Positions 8 through 30,448 of a stretch of 64,000 nt of DNA are shown one piece after another (positions within the stretch are counted from its first letter, which is position 1; each line of letters begins with the position of its first letter). This DNA comes from a virus. Below the pieces are notes generated by a model. It was not told the DNA's origin and did no database searches. It saw only the letters and a list, made by a program, of their open reading frames with translations. The stretch covers positions 1 to 64,000 of the IMG/VR virus record IMGVR_UViG_3300034816_000006; one strand, given 5' to 3'. The translations under genes were made by a program, and so were the position numbers.

Positions 8-2893
8 GTGGCGGCCCTCACCGCGCTCATGCACAAGGGCACACTGACCGCGATCGAATACGAGAACGAGTTCCAGCGGCTCGCGAAACAGTACGGCACG
101 ATGCATGGTCCGGTCGCGCCGGGGCCTGCGCTGCCAAAACCAGAAGCCGAGACCGACGGTGGCGTCGGGGCGCTTGCTGGGGGGCTCGGTCAGGCCGGGG
201 TCGTCCTTGCCGGAGGGGCGCTTGGGGCCGCTGCCATTGGTCTCGGTCAACATGTCTCTGGCCTCATCGACAAATTCCACGAACTTCAGGACACATGGAC
301 AGAGGCAAAGAATACAGCTCTCAAGTTTGCCGACAGCGTCCACTCGACCAACTTGATCATCGATGAGCAGATTCATCTTGCTCACGATCTTCATTCGACC
401 GAGACGGCGACGATCGAGCTGTACGATACGATCCGCGACGGCACCGACGACCTAAACGTCTCGCATCAGGAGCAGATCAACCTGACTCGAGCGCTCGGAG
501 AAGAAGTACAGATCGCAGGGAGATCGCTCGAAAGCGCTGGCAGTATCGCGCAGCGGTTTGCCTATGCGATGGCGCGTGGCTCCATCTCGGTGTTGGAACT
601 CAACCGGATGATGAAGCAAGTCCCGGAACTCGCAACGTTGTGGTCGAAGTCTCTAGGCACTGACGTTCCAGGTGTGCTCGCTAAGGTGCGGGCCGGGTCG
701 GTGAGCGTTGAGGACCTCATGCGTCCGCTGCTCAGCGAGGGCGAGCAGATTCACAAAAACTTCGAACTACGCGAGCGGACGATCAAGCAAAAGGAACAAG
801 AGCACGAACTGAACGAGAAGCTGTACTCGCAGAAGTATGACGTCGCACTCGGTGCAGGCCACGGTGCACAGGCGATCGTCGATGCGCTCAAGGCAAACGA
901 CGCCATGCGCCAAATGTACGCTCAGATGGGCAGCAGCGGGATCGGCGGGGCAACGTCGGATCTCGCCCGAGAGGCAGAGAAGCAACTAGCCGAGGAGCGC
1001 AAGGCGCACATCCAGGAAGCGATCGACGACGTCAAGAACCTGACGGGGTTCCTGCGGCCGCTGGGCGATCGGTATCGTGAATGGATCGGAGATACCGCGG
1101 CAGTTCGCGCTGAGGTCATCAAGATCAACGCCCCGATGGAAGCAGCGCGTGCAGAACTTGGCAAGCTCAACAAGGCATTTGAGATCGGCCAGATCGACGT
1201 CCTCGACTACACGAAGCACTGGGTCTCGCTGCAGACGACGATCGGCCACGGTGTTGGACCGCAGGCGTACAAGATCACCGAACCGATCCGCATCGCCAAG
1301 GAGGAACTGAAGCGGTTCATGAACGAGATCGAGGCGGGCGCCGATGTCACGCAGGCTCAGGCGCGCAAGGCGATCACGGGCTACGAAACCACGATCCTGG
1401 GTCGCGTTCCGGAGCAGGCGAAGCTCAACAACCCGAAGCTGGATGCGAAGGACGCGCTAGCTGATCTCATCAAGCTGCAGAAGGACGGCGTCATTACGGG
1501 CGAGGCGTTCCGTCGCGAGTACGAGTCGCTCGTCACGACGATGAACGACGGCCGCCTGCCCGAGGCCATCAAGATCTGGAACATGGTCCATGACCCGATC
1601 GACCAGGCCTCGCGAGACTTCCGCGCGCTCGAGGCGCTGTTCCGCAGCGGTCGGCTCTCTGCGGTGCAGTACACCGAGCAGCTGAAGATCGTCGCGGACA
1701 CGCACAAGAACGCTAACGCGGCGATCCTGGCCTCGAGCATCTCGGTATTGGATGAGAACGTCGCCAAGGGCGTGCTGCGCTGGCGCGACTACAACGCCGA
1801 GGTGGCGAAGGCCGTGGCCGGCTTCGAGCAGATCCACCGTACCGCGAGCGGGATCCAGTACCAGATCGCAGCGCCTGGGCCGTCGACGTCGGGCGTTCCG
1901 GGCCAGACCGTGGCACAGGCAGGCGCAGCAGCAACGTCGGCTGATTATGGCGACGAGTACAAGGCCCAGGCTGCTCAGCTCGAGCGCGCGCGACTGGTGG
2001 CCAATGAGGGCGCGGCTGCGCTCGTGAAGTACGAGCACGCGCTCAAGGATGTTGAGGTCGCGCAACAGGCTTACGGGCTGAGTGGCGAAGAAGTGACCGC
2101 TCGGCAGCGCAAGCTGCGTGACGAGTACGAAGCGACGGTCGAGTCGCTGACTAAGATCAAGAGCCCGCTGGCCACGTACCAGCTCACACTCAAGCACCTC
2201 GACGAGCAGCTTCACGACAGTGCCATCAGCCAGTCGAAGTACAACGAGGCGGTCGGCAAGGCCAAGCAGCAGCTGCTGACCGATACGGGCGGGGACAAGG
2301 AGTTCCTCGGGGCGATGGAACTGCAGTGGATCAAGCTCAAGGACGAGGCCGAAGCGTTCGGCGCCACTGTCGCGAACCAGGTCGTCGGCGACATCGGCAA
2401 GCTGAGCGACGCGCTGGTCACCGCGGCGAACGGCGGCGAGGTCTCGTGGTCCGGCATGGCCGACGCGATGATCCAGGACCTGGAGCGCGTACTGCTGCGG
2501 GCCCTGGCGATCAAGGCGATCATGGCGGTCGGCGACGCGATTTCCCCGGGCAGCGGGCAGGCGCTGGGCGCCGCGATCGGGCATGCCGCAACCGGCTTCG
2601 ATGCGGTGGTTCGTGGTCCTGGCAGCGTGGACAGCAAGCTGTTCGCGTCGTGGGTGTCTCCCGGCGAGCGCGTGACCATCACCCCGCCGGGCGCGTATCC
2701 GCACGCGGGCGGTGGTTTCTCGACCGGGCCGATGCAGGCCCCGCAGTCCAGGGCGCCGATCAACAAGATCTACAACATCATGGATGGTTCTGTGGTGCGC
2801 GCTGAGATCGGAAGCCGGAGCGGTAACCAGTCCGTGCTCAACGTGCTTCGAGCGAACCCCGGCGCGGTTGGGAACTACAGCGGCAGGCGGTGA
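8..2893 (+). CDS. Tail tape measure protein (5'-truncated by window)
   Basis: Long Ala-rich helical ORF, frame open to window start; tape-measure-like block (QRFAYAMARGSISVLELNRMMKQVP) and C-terminal ATGFDAVVRGPGSVDS...PGERVTITP motif. Confidence 0.85.
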   Translation: MAALTALMHKGTLTAIEYENEFQRLAKQYGTMHGPVAPGPALPKPEAETDGGVGALAGGLGQAGVVLAGGALGAAAIGLGQHVSGLIDKFHELQDTWTEAKNTALKFADSVHSTNLIIDEQIHLAHDLHSTETATIELYDTIRDGTDDLNVSHQEQINLTRALGEEVQIAGRSLESAGSIAQRFAYAMARGSISVLELNRMMKQVPELATLWSKSLGTDVPGVLAKVRAGSVSVEDLMRPLLSEGEQIHKNFELRERTIKQKEQEHELNEKLYSQKYDVALGAGHGAQAIVDALKANDAMRQMYAQMGSSGIGGATSDLAREAEKQLAEERKAHIQEAIDDVKNLTGFLRPLGDRYREWIGDTAAVRAEVIKINAPMEAARAELGKLNKAFEIGQIDVLDYTKHWVSLQTTIGHGVGPQAYKITEPIRIAKEELKRFMNEIEAGADVTQAQARKAITGYETTILGRVPEQAKLNNPKLDAKDALADLIKLQKDGVITGEAFRREYESLVTTMNDGRLPEAIKIWNMVHDPIDQASRDFRALEALFRSGRLSAVQYTEQLKIVADTHKNANAAILASSISVLDENVAKGVLRWRDYNAEVAKAVAGFEQIHRTASGIQYQIAAPGPSTSGVPGQTVAQAGAAATSADYGDEYKAQAAQLERARLVANEGAAALVKYEHALKDVEVAQQAYGLSGEEVTARQRKLRDEYEATVESLTKIKSPLATYQLTLKHLDEQLHDSAISQSKYNEAVGKAKQQLLTDTGGDKEFLGAMELQWIKLKDEAEAFGATVANQVVGDIGKLSDALVTAANGGEVSWSGMADAMIQDLERVLLRALAIKAIMAVGDAISPGSGQALGAAIGHAATGFDAVVRGPGSVDSKLFASWVSPGERVTITPPGAYPHAGGGFSTGPMQAPQSRAPINKIYNIMDGSVVRAEIGSRSGNQSVLNVLRANPGAVGNYSGRR

Positions 2894-6560: not shown

Positions 6561-8441
6561 ATGGGCTCGGGACCCAGCGGCCCCGGGCGTCGCGGGTTCC
6601 GGGCTCTCGTCCGGCCGCGCGCGTTTGTCCCCGACGTCGTGCCGCCGGTTCAGTCCGGCGCGCACCCATACGTCACGCGCAACGGCAACCGGCACCCGTC
6701 GCGATTCTTTCGCTTTCCCAAGCAACGCAAGGCCTACGAGGTCTACGGCGGCGGCAGTGGCGCGCTGTCGGGATATGGCGCGGCTGGCGCGGCGACGTTC
6801 GTGCTCTCGTTGGAGCCGGGAACCAGCGTCACGTACGCCTGGAGCACCGACGTCTACCGCAGCTATAGCGGCAACGAGCAGCGGTCATCGCCGTTCCCGA
6901 GTCCCAAGCAGCGGTTCGAGGGTGTCGCGTTCCTGGTCGATTCCAGTAGCCGTGACGCTCGAGGGACGCTTCAGCGCGCCGCGGCGGCCGGGTCGACGTT
7001 CCTGCTTGCGGTGCCGTACGAGGAAGTCGCGATCGTCACCGACACGAACAGCGCCACGGTCGCGGTGCTGAACGTCGGAAGCACGGCCGGCCTGGACTGG
7101 GCGCTGCCGACGCAGCGCGTGATCGTGCTCGGCGGTGACGGCACCGTGGCCTACGCGGTGATCCAGAGCGTGGCATCGACGACAATCTCGGTCATCGTCA
7201 CCACGGCGAGCGGCTCGCTGCTGTTCACGCCGATCGGGACGCCAGGCCTCACCGGCGGGCGTGTCATGCCGCTGGTGCAGGTCCTGCTCGATCCGCAACA
7301 GGGCTTCGCGCGGCACCCGGTCACGGTCGACGAGTGGTCGATCCGGTGCGCGGCCAATGTGTTCGGGTGGACCGGGGCCGACAGCATGGGTCTCGGCGCG
7401 CAGCTCTACACGTACACCAACGGCGGTCCGCAGGTGCAGTCGCGCATCACCGATGCCGACCTGCTCGTGTGGGATCGGCCGAACCTGATCGACGGCACGG
7501 CCGAGGACTCCATGCTCAGCGGCGCCGAGACGCTCGACATGGGCGCGCTGCCTGCGGGCTTCGGCGACCAGACTGTGCCCGATTGGTCGCGGCCGATCCG
7601 GTACGTTTCGAGTGATCCGGCCGAATGGCAGTGGCTCAAGGCGATGCTGCGCTTCCTGCGCGGGCGGCAGCGGCCGTTTCTGCTCAGCACGAACCGCCCG
7701 GACCTGGTCTACGTCGGACCGGCGAGTGGCGGAGGTATCAAGGTGCAGAGCTCGAGCGTGGCCGGCGGCGGCGACTACGCGAGCTGGTACACGTCGCTGG
7801 CTCATCGTCGGCTCGCGATTACGGACGGCAACGGTACGATCACCTACGTCACCGTGACCGCAGCGCCGGTCGACAACGGCGACGGGACGCTGACGCTGAT
7901 GCTCGACAATGGGATCAGTGGAACGCCCGCCCTGATCTCGCTCGCCGAGCAGCTGCGGATCGACAATGACGGCAGCGATGACATCACCGTGACATGGGAA
8001 GGCGGCACGTTCACCGTCGAGCTGACCGCGCGGGCCGTGCAGGAGACGATCACGACGCCGCTCGCATACATGTTCGATACGACGACCTCGCTGGTCTACG
8101 CGTACAACCCGCCGCCAGCGCCGCCGACGGATCAGGAGTTCGCCCCCGGCCCGCTTGGGCAGACCACGCTGCTCAACATCACGCTCGATCGCGGCCTGAC
8201 CTTCGGCGGAATCGTCCAGTCAACGGCGCCTGCGGACGGAACGGTGATCTGCATCAGGAACAACACGCCAGCGCCCAACGCGTTCGGCGCGAACCTTAAC
8301 CACGAGGACACGAACTTCTCGGCGCCTGACCGCTTCTGGTTGTTCAACAGGACCGGCCATACCGGCGTCAACGCAGCGATCTGGCTCGTCTACTCGAGTG
8401 TCGACCAGCGCTGGATTCAGATCGGCTGGAACGCCGGATAG
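6561..8441 (+). CDS. Distal tail/tail assembly protein with C-terminal putative receptor-binding domain
   Basis: WSTDVYRSYSGNEQR and FLRGRQRPF motifs; precedes BR0599-like gene. Confidence 0.7.
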   Translation: MGSGPSGPGRRGFRALVRPRAFVPDVVPPVQSGAHPYVTRNGNRHPSRFFRFPKQRKAYEVYGGGSGALSGYGAAGAATFVLSLEPGTSVTYAWSTDVYRSYSGNEQRSSPFPSPKQRFEGVAFLVDSSSRDARGTLQRAAAAGSTFLLAVPYEEVAIVTDTNSATVAVLNVGSTAGLDWALPTQRVIVLGGDGTVAYAVIQSVASTTISVIVTTASGSLLFTPIGTPGLTGGRVMPLVQVLLDPQQGFARHPVTVDEWSIRCAANVFGWTGADSMGLGAQLYTYTNGGPQVQSRITDADLLVWDRPNLIDGTAEDSMLSGAETLDMGALPAGFGDQTVPDWSRPIRYVSSDPAEWQWLKAMLRFLRGRQRPFLLSTNRPDLVYVGPASGGGIKVQSSSVAGGGDYASWYTSLAHRRLAITDGNGTITYVTVTAAPVDNGDGTLTLMLDNGISGTPALISLAEQLRIDNDGSDDITVTWEGGTFTVELTARAVQETITTPLAYMFDTTTSLVYAYNPPPAPPTDQEFAPGPLGQTTLLNITLDRGLTFGGIVQSTAPADGTVICIRNNTPAPNAFGANLNHEDTNFSAPDRFWLFNRTGHTGVNAAIWLVYSSVDQRWIQIGWNAG

Positions 8442-20439: not shown

Positions 20440-20640
20440 CCGGGAGACAGCCGGGAGACAGCGGCCATCAGCGTCTGCAACCGGCCGCGACTGTTCAGAT
20501 CCTGGGTCGGCTACGCGATGTTCTTGTTCGTCTTGCTGTGTCATGTTCTCGACATCCCTTGATGTACGCATCGTCTGCAACGTTGGCAACGGCATATCAC
20601 CCTCGACGGGGCCCTGAATTCGGGAGACGGACGGGAGACG
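20440..20640. promoter_or_regulatory. Putative attP with integrase arm-type sites
   Basis: CGGGAGAC at 20441, 20452, 20621, 20632 (two pairs, 11-bp period); CGTCTGCAAC at 20472 and 20572; next to integrase 3' end. Confidence 0.6.
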
Positions 20641-21706
20641 CTGCCATATCGCTCGGCATCCGGAACTTCACCCGGCCGTAGTCCTTCTCGAAGGTGTCCG
20701 GCCTGAGGTGCGCGTAGGTCCGCTCGGTGATGGTCACGCTCGAGTGCCCAAGGATACGCGAAAGGTCGAAGATATCGCCACCGTCGATCAGCCACAGCGA
20801 CGCGAAGCTGTGGCGCAGGTCGTGGACCCGCATGCGCTCGTCGAGTTCCGCATGCTCGACCGCGCGCTTGAACGGCTTCCATACCGACGGCTGCGACAGC
20901 GGCCTACCCGGTCGCCCGCCGGGCCACAGCAGCACGTTGCGGCCGCGCTGCAGACGCATCTCGCGAAGCACTGGAAGCAGAGCATCGAGGATCGGGACCC
21001 ACCGGAGCTTGCCGGACTTCGTCATTCCGCGGCGCCCTCGGTGTACCGCGATCAGCCGGTGCTCGAGATCGATGTCGTCCCAGTGCAGGTGGAGCGCCTC
21101 GTCGAGGCGCATGCCAGTGCCGACCAGCACGGCGACGATTGTGCGGATGTTCGGCGTGCATTCGGAGAGCAGCCGCGTCACCTGCTCCAGCGACTGCAGC
21201 CATGGAAACACCTTGGCTGGTCGCACGAGCATCTTCACGCGGTGGCACGGGTTGCCGGCGATCCACTGCTGATCGACGAACCATGTGAACGCGCTGGACA
21301 GCGTGCCGACAAGGGCGTTAACGAACGATGCAGACACGGTTGCGCTGATCCTGTCGCGCCAGCGGACCACCTCGAGCTTGCGGATCTTGACGATCGGCAC
21401 CGAGCCGAATTCAACCGCGAGATGGTTTCGCACGCGGCTCTCGTACTCGTCCCATGATCGGGATCCGGCTTCGCGTAGCGCCTTGATCCATGCCTCGGCA
21501 GCGACCGAGAACGTGCGCTCGATGTCGACGTCAGACGGCAGTTCGCCGCTCACGATCTTCCGCTGCGTCGTGCGGAAGTCCTCGTCTATCGCGATGGCCT
21601 CGCGCTTCGATGCGTACGAGCCGACGTAGACCTTCTTGTCGCGACCAGCGCGACGACCATAGACCTGGTAGCGGACGCCTTCGACCCTGCGAACCGTCTT
21701 GATCAT
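20597..21706 (-). CDS. int: Tyrosine integrase
   Basis: TGMRLDEA, TKSGK, HDLRHSFAS, ILGHSSVTITERTYAH catalytic motifs. Confidence 0.95.
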   Translation of the reverse strand: MIKTVRRVEGVRYQVYGRRAGRDKKVYVGSYASKREAIAIDEDFRTTQRKIVSGELPSDVDIERTFSVAAEAWIKALREAGSRSWDEYESRVRNHLAVEFGSVPIVKIRKLEVVRWRDRISATVSASFVNALVGTLSSAFTWFVDQQWIAGNPCHRVKMLVRPAKVFPWLQSLEQVTRLLSECTPNIRTIVAVLVGTGMRLDEALHLHWDDIDLEHRLIAVHRGRRGMTKSGKLRWVPILDALLPVLREMRLQRGRNVLLWPGGRPGRPLSQPSVWKPFKRAVEHAELDERMRVHDLRHSFASLWLIDGGDIFDLSRILGHSSVTITERTYAHLRPDTFEKDYGRVKFRMPSDMAASPVRLPNSGPRRG

Positions 21707-24683: not shown

Positions 24684-25277
24684 TCATGGCGCACTCCACG
24701 GCTGCGGCTGCATGTCGGCGGGGATGCGGTGCTTGCCGCGCGCAAGCGGGTGCTTCGGGTGTCCGGCCTTCGTCGTGCCGAGGTTGTGCGTCTTGATGCC
24801 AGCGGTCCGCAGCATGCCGAGCACGGCGCGATCGCGGCTGTCCAGCGCACCATCGTTGCCCCACGCCGTTACGACCACCGTCGCCATCGAGCACGCGAGC
24901 ATGATCGCCTGATTGTTGATGACGTCGTCGCCGCGCTCGCCGACCGCGCGCTTCTTGAGATCGGTCGGGTACGGCGACCGGAACGCGTGCTCGTTCACGA
25001 CCCACGTGATGTCGTGGCCCCAGCGACGCGTGAACTTCACGCATTCGGTGACCGTCGGGTCTGGTTTGAATGCGTCTGCGTCGCTGGGGTTCAACATCAG
25101 AAAGCAGGCGATCTCGAGTGTTGGCGGCGACCATGGCGGGCCGAGCATCTGGAAGATGACGTCGCCTCCGATCTCGCGGGCGCGGTCGCTGACCAGGCGC
25201 AGCAGATGATAGCGCATCGTCATGTCATCGCTGAACTGCGCGAATCCTGCACGATCGTCGCTCCACTGATCAATCAT
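24684..25277 (-). CDS. DUF1643 family protein
   Basis: MLNPSDADAFKPDPT, VTAWGN, TKAGHPKHPL. Confidence 0.85.
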   Translation of the reverse strand: MIDQWSDDRAGFAQFSDDMTMRYHLLRLVSDRAREIGGDVIFQMLGPPWSPPTLEIACFLMLNPSDADAFKPDPTVTECVKFTRRWGHDITWVVNEHAFRSPYPTDLKKRAVGERGDDVINNQAIMLACSMATVVVTAWGNDGALDSRDRAVLGMLRTAGIKTHNLGTTKAGHPKHPLARGKHRIPADMQPQPWSAP

Positions 25278-25293
25278 GTCTTGCTCCTCATCG

Positions 25294-25432
25294 TGGAGTC
25301 CGCCCGGCTCGAACGGGCATCACGCCTCGCGGCGTACGTTCTAGCAGCCGTCGCCACGCGTGCGGTGCTGTTGTCTCGAACCGTCGGAGCTGCAGGCATC
25401 CGACGAGCACTGTCCAATTGTGCTAGGACCCC
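25294..25432 (-). ncRNA. Non-canonical tRNA-like RNA with alanine identity elements (139 nt)
   Basis: Acceptor GGGGUCC/GGACUCC+A73, D-arm GCAC-AAUUGGACA-GUGC, T-arm GCCCG-UUCGAGC-CGGGC; expanded middle; no encoded CCA. Confidence 0.75.
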
Positions 25433-25438
25433 GGACAT

Positions 25439-26608
25439 CTAGAACGGACTACTCTCCGCCGACCCGTTGGTCAGCTGCTTGGGTTCATCGGTCTCGGGTG
25501 CCACCACGTGCAATGTCGGCTCGTATTCCTCGATCGTCACGGTCTCCTTGCGAGCCATCTTGCCGAGCCGCTCGACCTCACCGAACACCGCTTTCTTGGT
25601 CGCTGCGAACTGGCCTCGCTTCACGAGCGGCTTAACGACGCGCTCGAACTGCGCCTGTGACGCAACCATCTCCACGACCTTGTCCGCTACGTCGCGGCCG
25701 AGTTCCGGCATCGCAGCGACGACGGCATGCACCGTTGGGCCGTCGTACTCGCGGTCGCCCAGTTTCGCATGTGGGCCGAACATGCGGCCGTTGCGAAGGG
25801 GAATTGGGCGCTCGGCCGCTCGAGCGTACAGCGCGGCGCTCAGTCGCGTCTGCACCGTCTTGATCCGCTGCAACAGGTCGTAGGCGTCGGCTGCATCCTC
25901 GTCGTTACCGAACGGGATCATTGACTCGACGCGCATCGCGATCGCGCCACCGCCGGCCTCCTCGGCGAGACGCCTCTGCTCGGGACACGAGATGAACGCG
26001 TGGCAATACTTGCAGTGCTTGCCCGTGACCAGTTCGCGCGAGGTCGATGTCATCATCTCGCGTAACCGCGCCGCGTGGACATCGAGGTCGAACACACACA
26101 ACGTCGCCACGTCGGCCGGTTTCCACGACGCGCCGAGGTAGACGATTGCAACGGTGACCTCGTCACGACCCGAGGCGCGGGCAACCGCAAGTGCTCCGGT
26201 GGCAAGCTGCGGATTCAGCGCGGCCGACGTCACGTCTTCAAAACCCTTGTAGTCGACGACCAGCACGCGGTTCTCGCCGTATACGATGAGGTCGATCGTC
26301 ATCGGGATCTCGAACGGCCGCAGCCCGGAGTAGTCACGCCAGGCGATGTGGCCCAACGCGCGGGCCGTGTCGTCGCTGACGTCGTAGGCCATTGCGCATT
26401 CCGCGGCCATGACATCGCCCGGCTCCAGAAGCTTGCGAACCTGCCACGGCAGATCCTCGTGCGCACCAAGAACCGCGGCTGCCTCCGCATCCCCGTGTCG
26501 GTCGTTGCCAGCTTCGGCGTAGTCCGATCGGTAGTCGTGCTGCTCAAGGTGCGCCGAACCTGGGCAGGCGAGCACGCGCTCGACGGAGGATGCGGAGGGG
26601 CGGTTCAT
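25439..26608 (-). CDS. PD-(D/E)XK exonuclease (DUF2800/Cas4-like)
   Basis: SASS...ACPGS, TIDL...VVDYKG, NPQL, GKHCKYC...CP. Confidence 0.85.
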   Translation of the reverse strand: MNRPSASSVERVLACPGSAHLEQHDYRSDYAEAGNDRHGDAEAAAVLGAHEDLPWQVRKLLEPGDVMAAECAMAYDVSDDTARALGHIAWRDYSGLRPFEIPMTIDLIVYGENRVLVVDYKGFEDVTSAALNPQLATGALAVARASGRDEVTVAIVYLGASWKPADVATLCVFDLDVHAARLREMMTSTSRELVTGKHCKYCHAFISCPEQRRLAEEAGGGAIAMRVESMIPFGNDEDAADAYDLLQRIKTVQTRLSAALYARAAERPIPLRNGRMFGPHAKLGDREYDGPTVHAVVAAMPELGRDVADKVVEMVASQAQFERVVKPLVKRGQFAATKKAVFGEVERLGKMARKETVTIEEYEPTLHVVAPETDEPKQLTNGSAESSPF

Positions 26609-27028: not shown

Positions 27029-27886
27029 TCACGCTGTCTCACCCGTGCCTGTGTCGGACGAGTCGACGGAGCTCGTTGGCGTCGTCGCTGCGACCGACGA
27101 CGAATCGCCTGATGTAGGGCGTTTCTTGATCTCCGCGACCCGTGCCTTGTACTTGGCATTGATCGCCTCGTAGGCCGGGTGACCAGGGCGCAGGCCGCGC
27201 TTCGCGAAGCGACCGGCGATCTCCCTGCATGACTCGATCGTCTGAGCGTTTTCGAGCTGACCGATTTCCTCGTAGTCGGACGCGCTGAACGGCGGCGGCG
27301 TCGGCTGGGCATCGACAAACTCGGCGTCGATGGCGTCGACATGAACAGGACGCGGAGAATCGTCGCGCTCGCCGACCTCGTCGGCTGTGAACACCCCCGC
27401 AAGGATGTCCGAGTACACGTCGCGAGCGAGCTCCGACTTCGCGCGAGACGCCAGCATCGCCCGCGGGAACGTGCGCCAGTTGTCCTTCTGGTGCAGCGCG
27501 GCGACCTTGGCCATCTCGATGGTCCAGGTACACTTCTGCTCGGGTTCGCCGCGTCGCTTCGTCACATAGGTGACGCTCTTGTCTGTTCCCTCGCCGAGTC
27601 GACGGAAGTACTCGGCCTTGCCGCTGCCGAGTACAACCGCAACCATCGCATCCGCGCTCATCACGGGTTTGCCGTTGATGACCGAGAACGAGCGCAGCGA
27701 AGCCATCGGCGCGAGGCCCAGCTCCTGGCCCGCCATGATCTGCATCATGACCTCGGGAACCTTGTTGCGGAGCGCCTCGGGGAGCAACCCGGACTTGGCG
27801 ATGCGCTCGGACAGTGTCACGACCTCATCGAGCGTACGGGGGGCGATGATCGCGGGCTGGCGAACCAGTGCGGTCTCGTCGCTCAT
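27029..27886 (-). CDS. RecT-family single-strand annealing recombinase
   Basis: GQELGLAPMASLRSFSVINGKP, WRTFPRAML...ARDVYSDILAG. Confidence 0.85.
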   Translation of the reverse strand: MSDETALVRQPAIIAPRTLDEVVTLSERIAKSGLLPEALRNKVPEVMMQIMAGQELGLAPMASLRSFSVINGKPVMSADAMVAVVLGSGKAEYFRRLGEGTDKSVTYVTKRRGEPEQKCTWTIEMAKVAALHQKDNWRTFPRAMLASRAKSELARDVYSDILAGVFTADEVGERDDSPRPVHVDAIDAEFVDAQPTPPPFSASDYEEIGQLENAQTIESCREIAGRFAKRGLRPGHPAYEAINAKYKARVAEIKKRPTSGDSSSVAATTPTSSVDSSDTGTGETA

Positions 27887-28506: not shown

Positions 28507-30448
28507 TGGATCGTCAGTCGCCTGGTCTTGCGGTCTCGCCGCAGCTGCCTCGCCGTCGCTGGCACCACCGGCTCCCACGCCGCAAGGTCGCAGATGATGG
28601 CCGCAAGGACACAGGCCATGATGATCATGTCGGGCGAGATCACGGCTCGCCCCCACGAGAAGTCGTCCCGGCTGCCGGTCTGGAGTCCGGCATAGGTGAT
28701 CCACCCGTCGCGCTAGTCAGAGGGTAACGCGACGGCACAACCGGGACGGAAAACCGCTTGGGGCGCCGCCGCTCACGCACCTCGTCGACGATCATCTCAA
28801 TGGCGAGCTCGATCAGCTTCATGGCCAGAGCGCCAATCGCCATCAGGCCGATGACGACGAACGTCACTTGGTGGCCCCCAGCACCGCGTTGCAGCGCGCG
28901 ATCTGCGCGGCGATGAACTGTGCACGCTCGACGCTTAGGCCGTTGATGCCGAGGCTGGCGAGCTCGTCGCGATACGCCGCGACCAGCGACAGCGCCTCGG
29001 CTGAGTGCGACGCAGCCAGAAACCGCTCGACCATGATGTCCGCGATCTCGTGCACGACTGCCGCGGTCGTGGTCTCCCCGGGACCGTTGGCCTCGATGGC
29101 CCGGCGTGCTGCTGACTCGAGGCGAGCGGCATCGCTGGCAGCCTTCGATGCCCGTAGCTGCTGCAGCTCCAGCAACGCGCTCCGCACCGGAGGTGGCACG
29201 TCGGTCAGCCAGGCCTTGAGGTCGTCGTCGGACAGTCGCTCGTTCATGCCTCACCTCGATCCTTCGACATCTCGGCGCGCTCGGCCTCGAAGTCATCGGC
29301 AATCCTGCGCTGCGCATCGGCAAGCTCCGCGTAGTACGAAGCGGTGAGCATGGCCGCCGCGAGTGTTGACACGGCGCGGACATCCGGTCCGATGGTGCCG
29401 AATTCGTCGCTATAGAGCTTGCGGGCCTCGGCGAGCGCAGCGGCCGCGCGATGAATGATCTCGTTGTTCATGGCTTCCTCGTGGGCTTCGTATCGGCCAT
29501 CGACGACGGAGACGGGATGTCGAGCACTTCCGCCAGTGGCACACCGTCGATGCTCGGCACAGGCTCGAGCACGGCGAGCATGGCGCCCGTGGCCTCGTGG
29601 AGCCAGCGCAAGGACGCTTGGTCCAGGTCGACTAGGTCGTGCGTGACATAATGGTGCGCCTCCGGATCGAGCACTTGATCGGCATGCACCGTCTCCCAAG
29701 CCAACAGCATTCCCACGCTCGGTGAACTCTCCAGGCGCAGGCGTTCACCTGGCGCTCCGGTCGGAAAGATCCTGACGAAGCGCCTCACGACTCGACCTCG
29801 GGATCGAAGCGCGAGTCATGCGGCGTGCCGTGGTCGGCGCTGCGCGTGACGGCGCACGTCGTCTCGTGGTCATCCTCGTCGCGAATGTCGGGTTCGGCGG
29901 CTCGCTGGGCCTCGTAGGCAGCCGCGGAGATGTCGGTTTGGTCAAGGTCGACAACTATGCCGTCCCCGAACATCTCCTGTGCCGCGACCTGCGTGGGCTC
30001 CTGACCGCAGCACGGCTGATTCGCCATCTGCGCCAGCAGCGCCTCGGCCGCGGCGTCGTTCTCGGCCGTCTCGGCGAGTTGCTCAGCGACCGGGCGCGAG
30101 ATGTCCCAGTCCCAGCCGTCGCTGTGGTCGTTGGCGATCTCGGCCGCTAGCCAGCCCCCGTGCCAGGCGGCGAGGTCGACGAATGGCGAGGCCTCGTCGC
30201 CATCGAAGCCAGCGTCTTCCGCGTTGGTCATCCGCGCGAATCCGTCGGCCAGCAGTTCGGCGGCGATCGCCGCGGCCGCGATCTCGTGCTCGACCGCGAG
30301 CAAGGCGTCATTGGCGGGGCCGAGCGACAGCGTCTCGCCGCACGCCTGGCACTTCGCGTGCCTGACCGCTGGATGATGCCAGGCAGCTGTCTCGTGCTGG
30401 CATTGAGTCTTGCGCTTCGTCATTGTCTATCCTGTAGTCACTCTCTAG

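Follow-up and report, generated by a model that had tools for sequence, protein, structure and literature searches.

The early (recombination) operon region of a temperate soil phage carries, on its minus strand, a real, statistically secure and non-canonical tRNA-like gene with alanine identity, which is probably functional. We judge it somewhat better than an even chance that this element is a non-decoding tRNA-like RNA that derives from tRNA-Ala(UGC), is excised from the early operon transcript and can probably be charged with an amino acid. Descent from tRNA-Ala(UGC) is proposed because the alanine identity set of the acceptor stem occurs together with UGCA in the loop of an anticodon-like arm.

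Results

The element lies in a non-coding gap of the early operon

The phage is represented by a 76,195-bp IMG/VR virus record (65% G+C, rated 97% complete), and the window, the whole stretch of DNA to which all positions below refer, is its first 64 kb. The local order of genes is integrase, small regulators, DUF1643, the element, exonuclease, two small genes and RecT-like protein, with the following features.

25294-25432, minus strand: tRNA-like element, 139 nt, in a 160-nt non-coding gap between the exonuclease and DUF1643 genes
25439-26608, minus strand: upstream gene, PD-(D/E)XK / DUF2800 exonuclease, whose stop codon lies 6 nt before the element
24684-25277, minus strand: downstream gene, DUF1643 protein, with a GAGGAG ribosome-binding site at 25284-25289, 5 nt past the element
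20597-21706: integrase, 3.6 kb from the element
27029-27886: RecT-like annealing protein, with two small genes between it and the exonuclease

The gap could be read as a gene for a 54-residue protein (25274-25438, minus strand), the tRNA shape being incidental. Such an ORF would start directly past the upstream stop, and its TGA overlaps the downstream ATG in the manner of coupled phage genes. We consider this reading highly improbable: the G+C content by codon position is 0.56/0.71/0.64 compared to about 0.65/0.47/0.82 in the neighbouring genes, the codon log-odds score is -0.33 compared to a mean of +0.47 in real-gene windows of equal length, no Shine-Dalgarno sequence precedes the ATG, no homologue or called protein was found among 5.8 billion predicted proteins, and the tRNA frame never arose by chance in shuffled sequences. 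The gap is treated as non-coding. Elsewhere in the window, the ORF at 28640-29383 (minus strand) also shows a non-coding codon pattern (G+C by position 0.72/0.67/0.61, score -0.17) and is probably not a real gene at that place; a shorter ORF in another frame, 28864-29247, scores as coding.

No promoter-like site was found near the element, and terminator-like sites showed neither enrichment nor a convincing candidate. None of the 28 annotated neighbouring and replication genes has an RNA function, and genes for Ro/TROVE, SmpB, a CCA-adding enzyme or RtcB, any of which might have hinted at a decoy or processing role, were not found in the phage genome, although all positive controls were detected. 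Since no gene of this set has an RNA function, any partner of the element must be a host protein. The downstream neighbour belongs to a family that is widespread in phages (407 relatives in one search); a search by sequence gave no solved relative, and no function for DUF1643 was found in the literature. Its AF2 model (pLDDT 82) is a generic alpha/beta sandwich with repeated weak matches to uracil-DNA-glycosylase-like folds (Z about 5).

Two pairs of direct GTCTCCCG repeats are located at 20440-20640 (minus strand), immediately downstream of the integrase and 4.7 kb from the element. These repeats resemble the arm-type integrase binding sites that flank attP, and attP is thus likely not at the element. 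The insert of the element was not found as a repeat elsewhere in the phage genome.

The outer tRNA frame is intact and statistically secure

The original prediction described an outer frame made of an acceptor stem with G3:U70 and A73, U8A9, a D-arm with GG and a T-arm with the loop UUCGAGC, with no encoded CCA. Feature by feature, this frame was found again.

25426-25432, minus strand: 5' strand of the acceptor stem, GGGGUCC (element positions 1-7), 7/7 pairs with 25295-25301, G3:U70 included
25294-25301, minus strand: 3' strand of the acceptor stem, GGACUCC, and discriminator A73, read from the sequence
25424-25425, minus strand: U8 and A9, read from the sequence
25407-25423, minus strand: D-arm (positions 10-26), 4-bp stem GCAC/GUGC and 9-nt loop AAUUGGACA, pair probability 0.98-1.0
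25302-25318, minus strand: T-arm GCCCG-UUCGAGC-CGGGC (positions 115-131), 1 of 2 T-arm-like hairpins in the genome

Alanyl-tRNA synthetase (AlaRS) recognizes the G3:U70 wobble together with A73, G2:C71 and G4:C69. The acceptor stem of the element reads G1:C72, G2:C71, G3:U70, G4:C69 and A73, so that the predicted alanine identity is borne out by a complete acceptor-stem set. The D-loop carries A14, A15, G18, G19 and A21 in the expected places, and the 5-bp T-arm has G53:C61, U54, U55, C56 and A58, which completes the elbow nucleotides of a canonical tRNA (A14, G18, G19, A21, G53:C61, U54, U55, C56, A58). All 16 base pairs of the frame and every nucleotide of the tertiary core are intact. The bases after A73 are CGA. 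The other T-arm-like hairpin of the genome (28468-28492, minus strand; CGCCG-TTCGACT-CGGCG) lies inside an ORF, has no acceptor partner and is probably due to chance.

To compare the frame against chance, we employed our own detector, which requires a 7-bp acceptor stem, U8, a 4-bp D stem with an A..GG loop and a 5-bp T stem with UUCRANY, and accepts any frame span of 66-200 nt. It gave 1 match in the 76-kb genome, the element itself, compared to 0 in 300 shuffled genomes with preserved dinucleotide content. Run on 779 kb of fetched loci as a positive control, it reported 41 frames, 39 of normal tRNA size; frames longer than 95 nt numbered two, the element and an unrelated case on phage contig L157 that is described below.

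Standard detectors with default settings do not recognize the element

It had been expected that a weak canonical call or none would be obtained, and both standard tools gave none: ARAGORN with default settings made 0 calls, tRNA or tmRNA, and Rfam returned no match over 800 nt, whether gathering thresholds or a limit of E up to 10 applied (RF00005, tmRNA, Y RNA, introns and ribozymes). By these models the element is outside the canonical tRNA family, in its anticodon arm and in its variable region.

When introns were allowed, ARAGORN made a single call in the 76 kb, which was the element, as a tRNA-Val(GAC) with a 45-nt intron. This call is what would favour a true decoding tRNA spliced to about 75 nt, a reading that we regard as very unlikely. 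The intron model is forced: the intron would interrupt the anticodon, the anticodon stem would contain a mismatch, and the variable arm would still measure 24 nt. A brute-force deletion scan produced 269 different ARAGORN "tRNAs" from 2325 deletions, with no unique sensible product; the frame alone makes ARAGORN accept nearly any middle, and the intron call therefore says nothing about the middle. In addition, a group I intron would need far more sequence than the insert offers, Rfam gave no intron or ribozyme match at E up to 10, and the phage encodes no RtcB splicing ligase. A group I or other self-splicing intron within a tRNA was rejected as an identity of the element, with no Rfam core at E up to 10 and no sensible spliced product.

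The middle of the element is incompatible with decoding

Between the D-arm and the T-arm, the rebuilt middle consists of an anticodon-like arm and two proposed extra arms.

25382-25405, minus strand: hairpin 1 (anticodon-like arm), positions 28-51, pair probability 0.89-0.99
25338-25381, minus strand: P2, first extra arm, positions 52-95, probability 0.05 in the reference copy and 0.96-1.0 in the variants
25321-25336, minus strand: P3, second extra arm, positions 97-112, 6-bp stem with a GCGA (GNRA) tetraloop, probability 0.07 in the reference copy and 0.93-0.96 in the variants

Hairpin 1, CGUCGGA(U)G-CCUGCAG-C-UCCGACG, forms 7 bp, a bulged U35 and then G36:C44, which makes the 8-bp bulged stem closing CCUGCAG that had been predicted. 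Its loop (25390-25396) places UGC followed by A at the anticodon and 37 positions, with C at position 33 and not U33. Where a canonical tRNA has a 5-bp anticodon stem and U33, the element has 8 bp, a bulged U and C33, and where the canonical variable region measures 4 to about 24 nt, 62 nt separate hairpin 1 from the T-arm. An anticodon stem that is three pairs too long, bulged and without U33 is, by established tRNA geometry, not that of a decoder. The 8-bp bulged arm, the missing U33 and the 62-nt variable region thus support the claim that the element does not decode.

The base helix of P2 pairs positions 52-58 with 89-95 (GUUCGAG / CU(A or C)GA(A or G)C); its interior is irregular, and it ends in an apical hairpin, CCGC-ACGC-GUGG. 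In the reference sequence the model with two extra hairpins reaches -51.4 compared to -63.3 kcal/mol for the unconstrained optimum, and folding constrained to the frame gives -58 to -61.5 kcal/mol through one long irregular hairpin. The reference optimum breaks the T-arm (probability 0.27), as an inner GGUUCGAG pairs with the T-loop over 8 bp, and the middle alone folds no better than its shuffles (z -0.9). The two extra hairpins of the original prediction therefore hold in part: they are the unconstrained optimum when the bases of natural variants are introduced and not the predicted optimum in the reference copy.

Related copies are conserved and their substitutions favour the proposed arms

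To compare natural copies, public sequencing-run contigs were aligned to the region, including a second strain in X1, the probable source run, and contigs from X2 and X3, which are other soil or rhizosphere studies. Record 14 of X2 covers 25265-25423 with 6 differences in 159 nt, record 17 of X3 covers 25265-25389 with 5 differences in 125 nt, record 18 of X3 covers 25384-25432 with 2 differences in 49 nt, and record 5 of X1 covers 25327-25486 with 10 differences and 4 gaps. About four near-identical copies were found in this way, and between metagenomes the identity is about 96% over the element with its insert. Records 14, 17 and 18 define an island of conservation.

25265-25432, minus strand: conservation island, consisting of the element and 29 nt downstream

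The flanks differ from this island. Pieces of the DUF1643 coding region from X2 differ at 13 of 87 positions (about 85% identical where aligned), and the X3 flanks gave no alignment at 80%. On the assumption that the pieces within one run stem from one genome, changes as few as those in the element would occur at the X2 flank rate with a probability of about 5e-6 for X2 and 3e-6 for X3. The alignment of record 18 ends exactly at 25432, which is frame position 1, and leaves 102 further contig bases unmatched; it is probable that the upstream context differs there and that similarity starts at G1, the orientation of the unmatched part not being stated.

Away from contig ends, three variant positions are reported, 25349 C>T, 25342 T>G and 25339 T>C on the plus strand, corresponding to G84A, A91C and A94G of the element. 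All three fall inside the insert; G84A and A91C are present in all three relatives and A94G in X3. With the three substitutions introduced, the unconstrained minimum becomes a six-helix fold of -67.4 kcal/mol, in which the acceptor stem, D-arm, hairpin 1, P2, P3 and T-arm each have a mean pair probability of at least 0.93 and the alternative that breaks the T-arm drops to at most 0.03. A91C turns a G.A mismatch of P2 into G-C, A94G keeps a P2 pair (U-A to U.G), and G84A removes one pair of the competing long hairpin. In these folding models, the substitutions lend thin support to the two-arm architecture, through two informative changes that may be a single event, and suggest that the reference copy represents a minority, less well-folding state.

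These observations bear on the possibility that the element is a decaying tRNA-Ala pseudogene, a formerly functional phage tRNA whose anticodon loop and variable region acquired inserted sequence and which now drifts neutrally. Such decay would account for the silence of default ARAGORN and Rfam, the loss of U33 with an abnormal anticodon stem, and the absence of the element from most related loci (see below), as well as for a reference copy in which the mismatch at A91 frustrates its own fold and the middle is no better than shuffled sequence. It fits poorly with a frame in which all 16 pairs and the tertiary-core nucleotides have survived, with about 96% identity across metagenomes next to a gene that is about 85% identical or unalignable, and with substitutions that improve the structure and do not erode it. 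A dead 160-nt spacer would also be unusual in a tightly packed operon with overlapping stops and starts. On balance we find a pseudogene rather unlikely.

The same island of identity could be read at the DNA level, as a conserved recombination joint or module boundary, or as an integration-related tRNA-like site, that is kept by exchange. Genes for tRNAs are classical targets of recombination and integration, the island is sharp with unlike sequence on at least one side, and the gene order around DUF1643 differs between relatives. A joint, however, needs no complete 5' and 3' tRNA frame with its tertiary nucleotides, the integrase is 3.6 kb away with its own adjoining repeat-flanked region, and the substitutions respect RNA pairing, which leaves this reading with a low probability. 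High conservation as such could reflect recent spread or recombination and not selection. Returning to the non-decoding RNA that we favour, the element appears to be maintained, being better conserved than its flanks and carrying natural substitutions that favour the proposed arms, and its conservation extends over a narrow clade of soil phages.

Searches for further homologues

Using a DUF1643 alignment, we fetched 155 loci from viral, genome and metagenome collections. None of them contained the element by nhmmer, blastn, ARAGORN or R1, a covariance model of the element, and no homologue was found across 176 other loci in all. At the three nearest of these loci, whose DUF1643 proteins are 81%, 69% and 65% identical, no copy of the element precedes the DUF1643 gene; its start adjoins a small cysteine-rich ORF, and the surrounding gene order differs between relatives. 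Five complete related phage records also lacked the element. Model R1 gives genuine phage tRNAs scores of 24-29 bits, through the frame alone.

Exact and degenerate scans of IMG/VR with the 5' half, a gapped architecture pattern, the 3' 40-mer and the hairpin-1 38-mer returned ordinary tRNAs or nothing, the only matches in GenBank phages and PLSDB plasmids were 27 nt long and due to chance, and a search for related loci with single flanking proteins gave nothing. The T-arm/acceptor pattern matched no tRNA in four cellular genomes, and the number of hits there was equal to that of the control. Among the sequencing runs listed for the region none is of RNA, and nothing specific on similar phage tRNA-like elements was found in the literature. 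The closest DUF1643 relatives on Logan contigs show 74-82% identity, and these contigs most likely carry further copies of the element.

Several other tRNA-like sequences were encountered in the fetched loci. Locus L006 (identical to L104), from a related phage, contains at 444-516 (plus strand) a canonical tRNA of 73 nt whose anticodon is UGC; the DUF1643 gene of this phage, 45% identical, lies about 2 kb downstream. The alanine identity of this tRNA is doubtful, as its acceptor stem has U3:A70 and not G3:U70. It was rejected as an ancestor of the element, with which it has only the T-loop in common. On the 38% GC phage contig L157, positions 8207-8312 (plus strand) hold a second, unrelated oversized tRNA frame of 106 nt, with a perfect 7-bp acceptor stem, U8, a D-arm, a T-arm with the loop UUCUAGC and an irregular hairpin of ~43 nt in place of the anticodon arm; ARAGORN made no call on it, whether or not introns were allowed. 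Large phage contigs of low GC that carry tRNA arrays (L159:541-618 and L164:2070-2147, both plus strand) encode a CUA-anticodon tRNA that ARAGORN labels Pyl, a candidate amber suppressor.

Discussion

A possible route from operon transcript to charged RNA

If the element is a non-decoding tRNA-like RNA, it would be transcribed as part of a polycistronic RNA, as its position in an operon gap suggests. Host RNase P would cut at G1, and a 3' endonuclease or exonuclease would trim after A73, following the established substrate rules of these enzymes. CCA is not encoded and the phage has no CCA-adding enzyme of its own, so that a host enzyme would have to complete the end by the same kind of rules. 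The product of these steps would be a stable RNA of about 139-142 nt. As the element lies within a polycistronic unit, with neither a promoter-like nor a convincing terminator-like site close by, its excision would cut the message too and sever the exonuclease/RecT part from the DUF1643 part.

The freed RNA would retain the "top half" and elbow of a tRNA, that is, the 12-bp acceptor/T stack, the D-loop/T-loop elbow nucleotides and the alanine identity set, and would be expected to serve as a substrate of AlaRS; the geometry of its middle almost certainly precludes a role as a ribosomal adaptor. Judged by its sequence, the enzymes whose tRNA features stay intact would be RNase P, the 3' processing nucleases, the CCA-adding enzyme, AlaRS and probably EF-Tu, and a charged mimic could act off the ribosome. 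Among the roles listed in the original prediction (a decoy for anticodon nucleases or stalled ribosomes, or an RNase P/Z processing signal), only the processing signal would follow directly from the anatomy and the position in the operon, and such a "punctuation" effect would be the minimal function.

The usual explanation for phage tRNAs is codon supply and, more recently, escape from tRNA-cleaving defences. Codon supply cannot explain an RNA in which only the enzyme-recognition half of a tRNA is retained, with the full alanine identity set; the element points to a tRNA shape used outside decoding, either as RNase P operon punctuation or as a charged mimic. It is invisible to standard annotation, and as less than 1 Mb of phage DNA yielded a second, unrelated oversized frame by accident, elements of this kind may be under-counted. 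As a bolder conjecture, which we put forward with considerable doubt, the element would be the first to be recognised from a class of unannotated phage RNAs, "expanded tRNA mimics", in which the enzyme-facing frame is kept, the decoding half is replaced by new arms, and the RNA is processed and aminoacylated by the host and acts off the ribosome, with the T4 rnaC RNA and the L157 frame as independent examples. Members of such a class could be bait or a sponge for readers of the tRNA top (a tRNA-targeting defence nuclease, AlaRS or EF-Tu) or, alternatively, tRNA-scaffolded regulatory RNAs.

Comparison with known RNAs

Compared to a canonical tRNA-Ala(UGC), the element has the same 7-bp acceptor stem, full identity set, U8, A14, G18, G19, A21, G53:C61 and UUCGA T-loop, and its 7-nt loop likewise presents UGC and then A. 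It differs in its 8-bp bulged stem compared to a 5-bp anticodon stem, in C compared to the universal U33, in 62 nt with two hairpins compared to a 5-nt variable loop, and in an atypical D-loop, AAUUGGACA. Class II tRNAs (Leu, Ser, Tyr, Sec) also have extra helices between the anticodon arm and the T-arm, but these amount to one hairpin of up to about 20 nt beside a normal anticodon arm, whereas the element has two, about 60 nt, beside an abnormal arm.

The tRNA-like domain of tmRNA shares with the element an acceptor stem of alanine identity with G3:U70, a T-arm and the lack of anticodon decoding. The element, in contrast, measures 139 nt compared to 260-400 nt, keeps a full D-arm and has no pseudoknots. 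A single UAG occurs in the insert, at positions 90-92; all three relatives have lost it through A91C, and the frame before it bears no resemblance to a degradation tag. A tmRNA identity was rejected on the lack of a tag frame with a conserved stop, the wrong size, the lack of pseudoknots and the lack of an ARAGORN or Rfam tmRNA call.

YrlA and other bacterial Y RNAs, the tRNA-mimicking partners of Ro, occur in some phages too. They are likewise non-coding and have a tRNA-like module with T-arm and D-arm mimicry. The ends of YrlA form the Ro-binding stem with the tRNA-like part internal, whereas the ends of the element form the acceptor stem. This identity was rejected as well, with no Rfam match and no TROVE/Ro gene in the phage, the positive controls having been detected.

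The nearest precedent in kind is T4 species 1 RNA (rnaC, NC_000866 70908-71046), which is annotated as a small stable RNA within a tRNA cluster. Like the element, it is phage-encoded and 139 nt long (a coincidence), and in our reading and folding of it a canonical T-arm stands beside a terminal acceptor-like stem, with large arms in between. Unlike the element, it has no D-arm, a mismatched terminal stem and no G3:U70, and it belongs to the tRNA cluster of a lytic phage and not to a protein-coding operon of a temperate one. The resemblance is architectural only; there is no sequence similarity, and model R1 did not match the rnaC locus at E up to 10. To our knowledge the function of rnaC was never established. 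A frame-first search could show how common such elements are and give this 50-year-old puzzle relatives for comparison.
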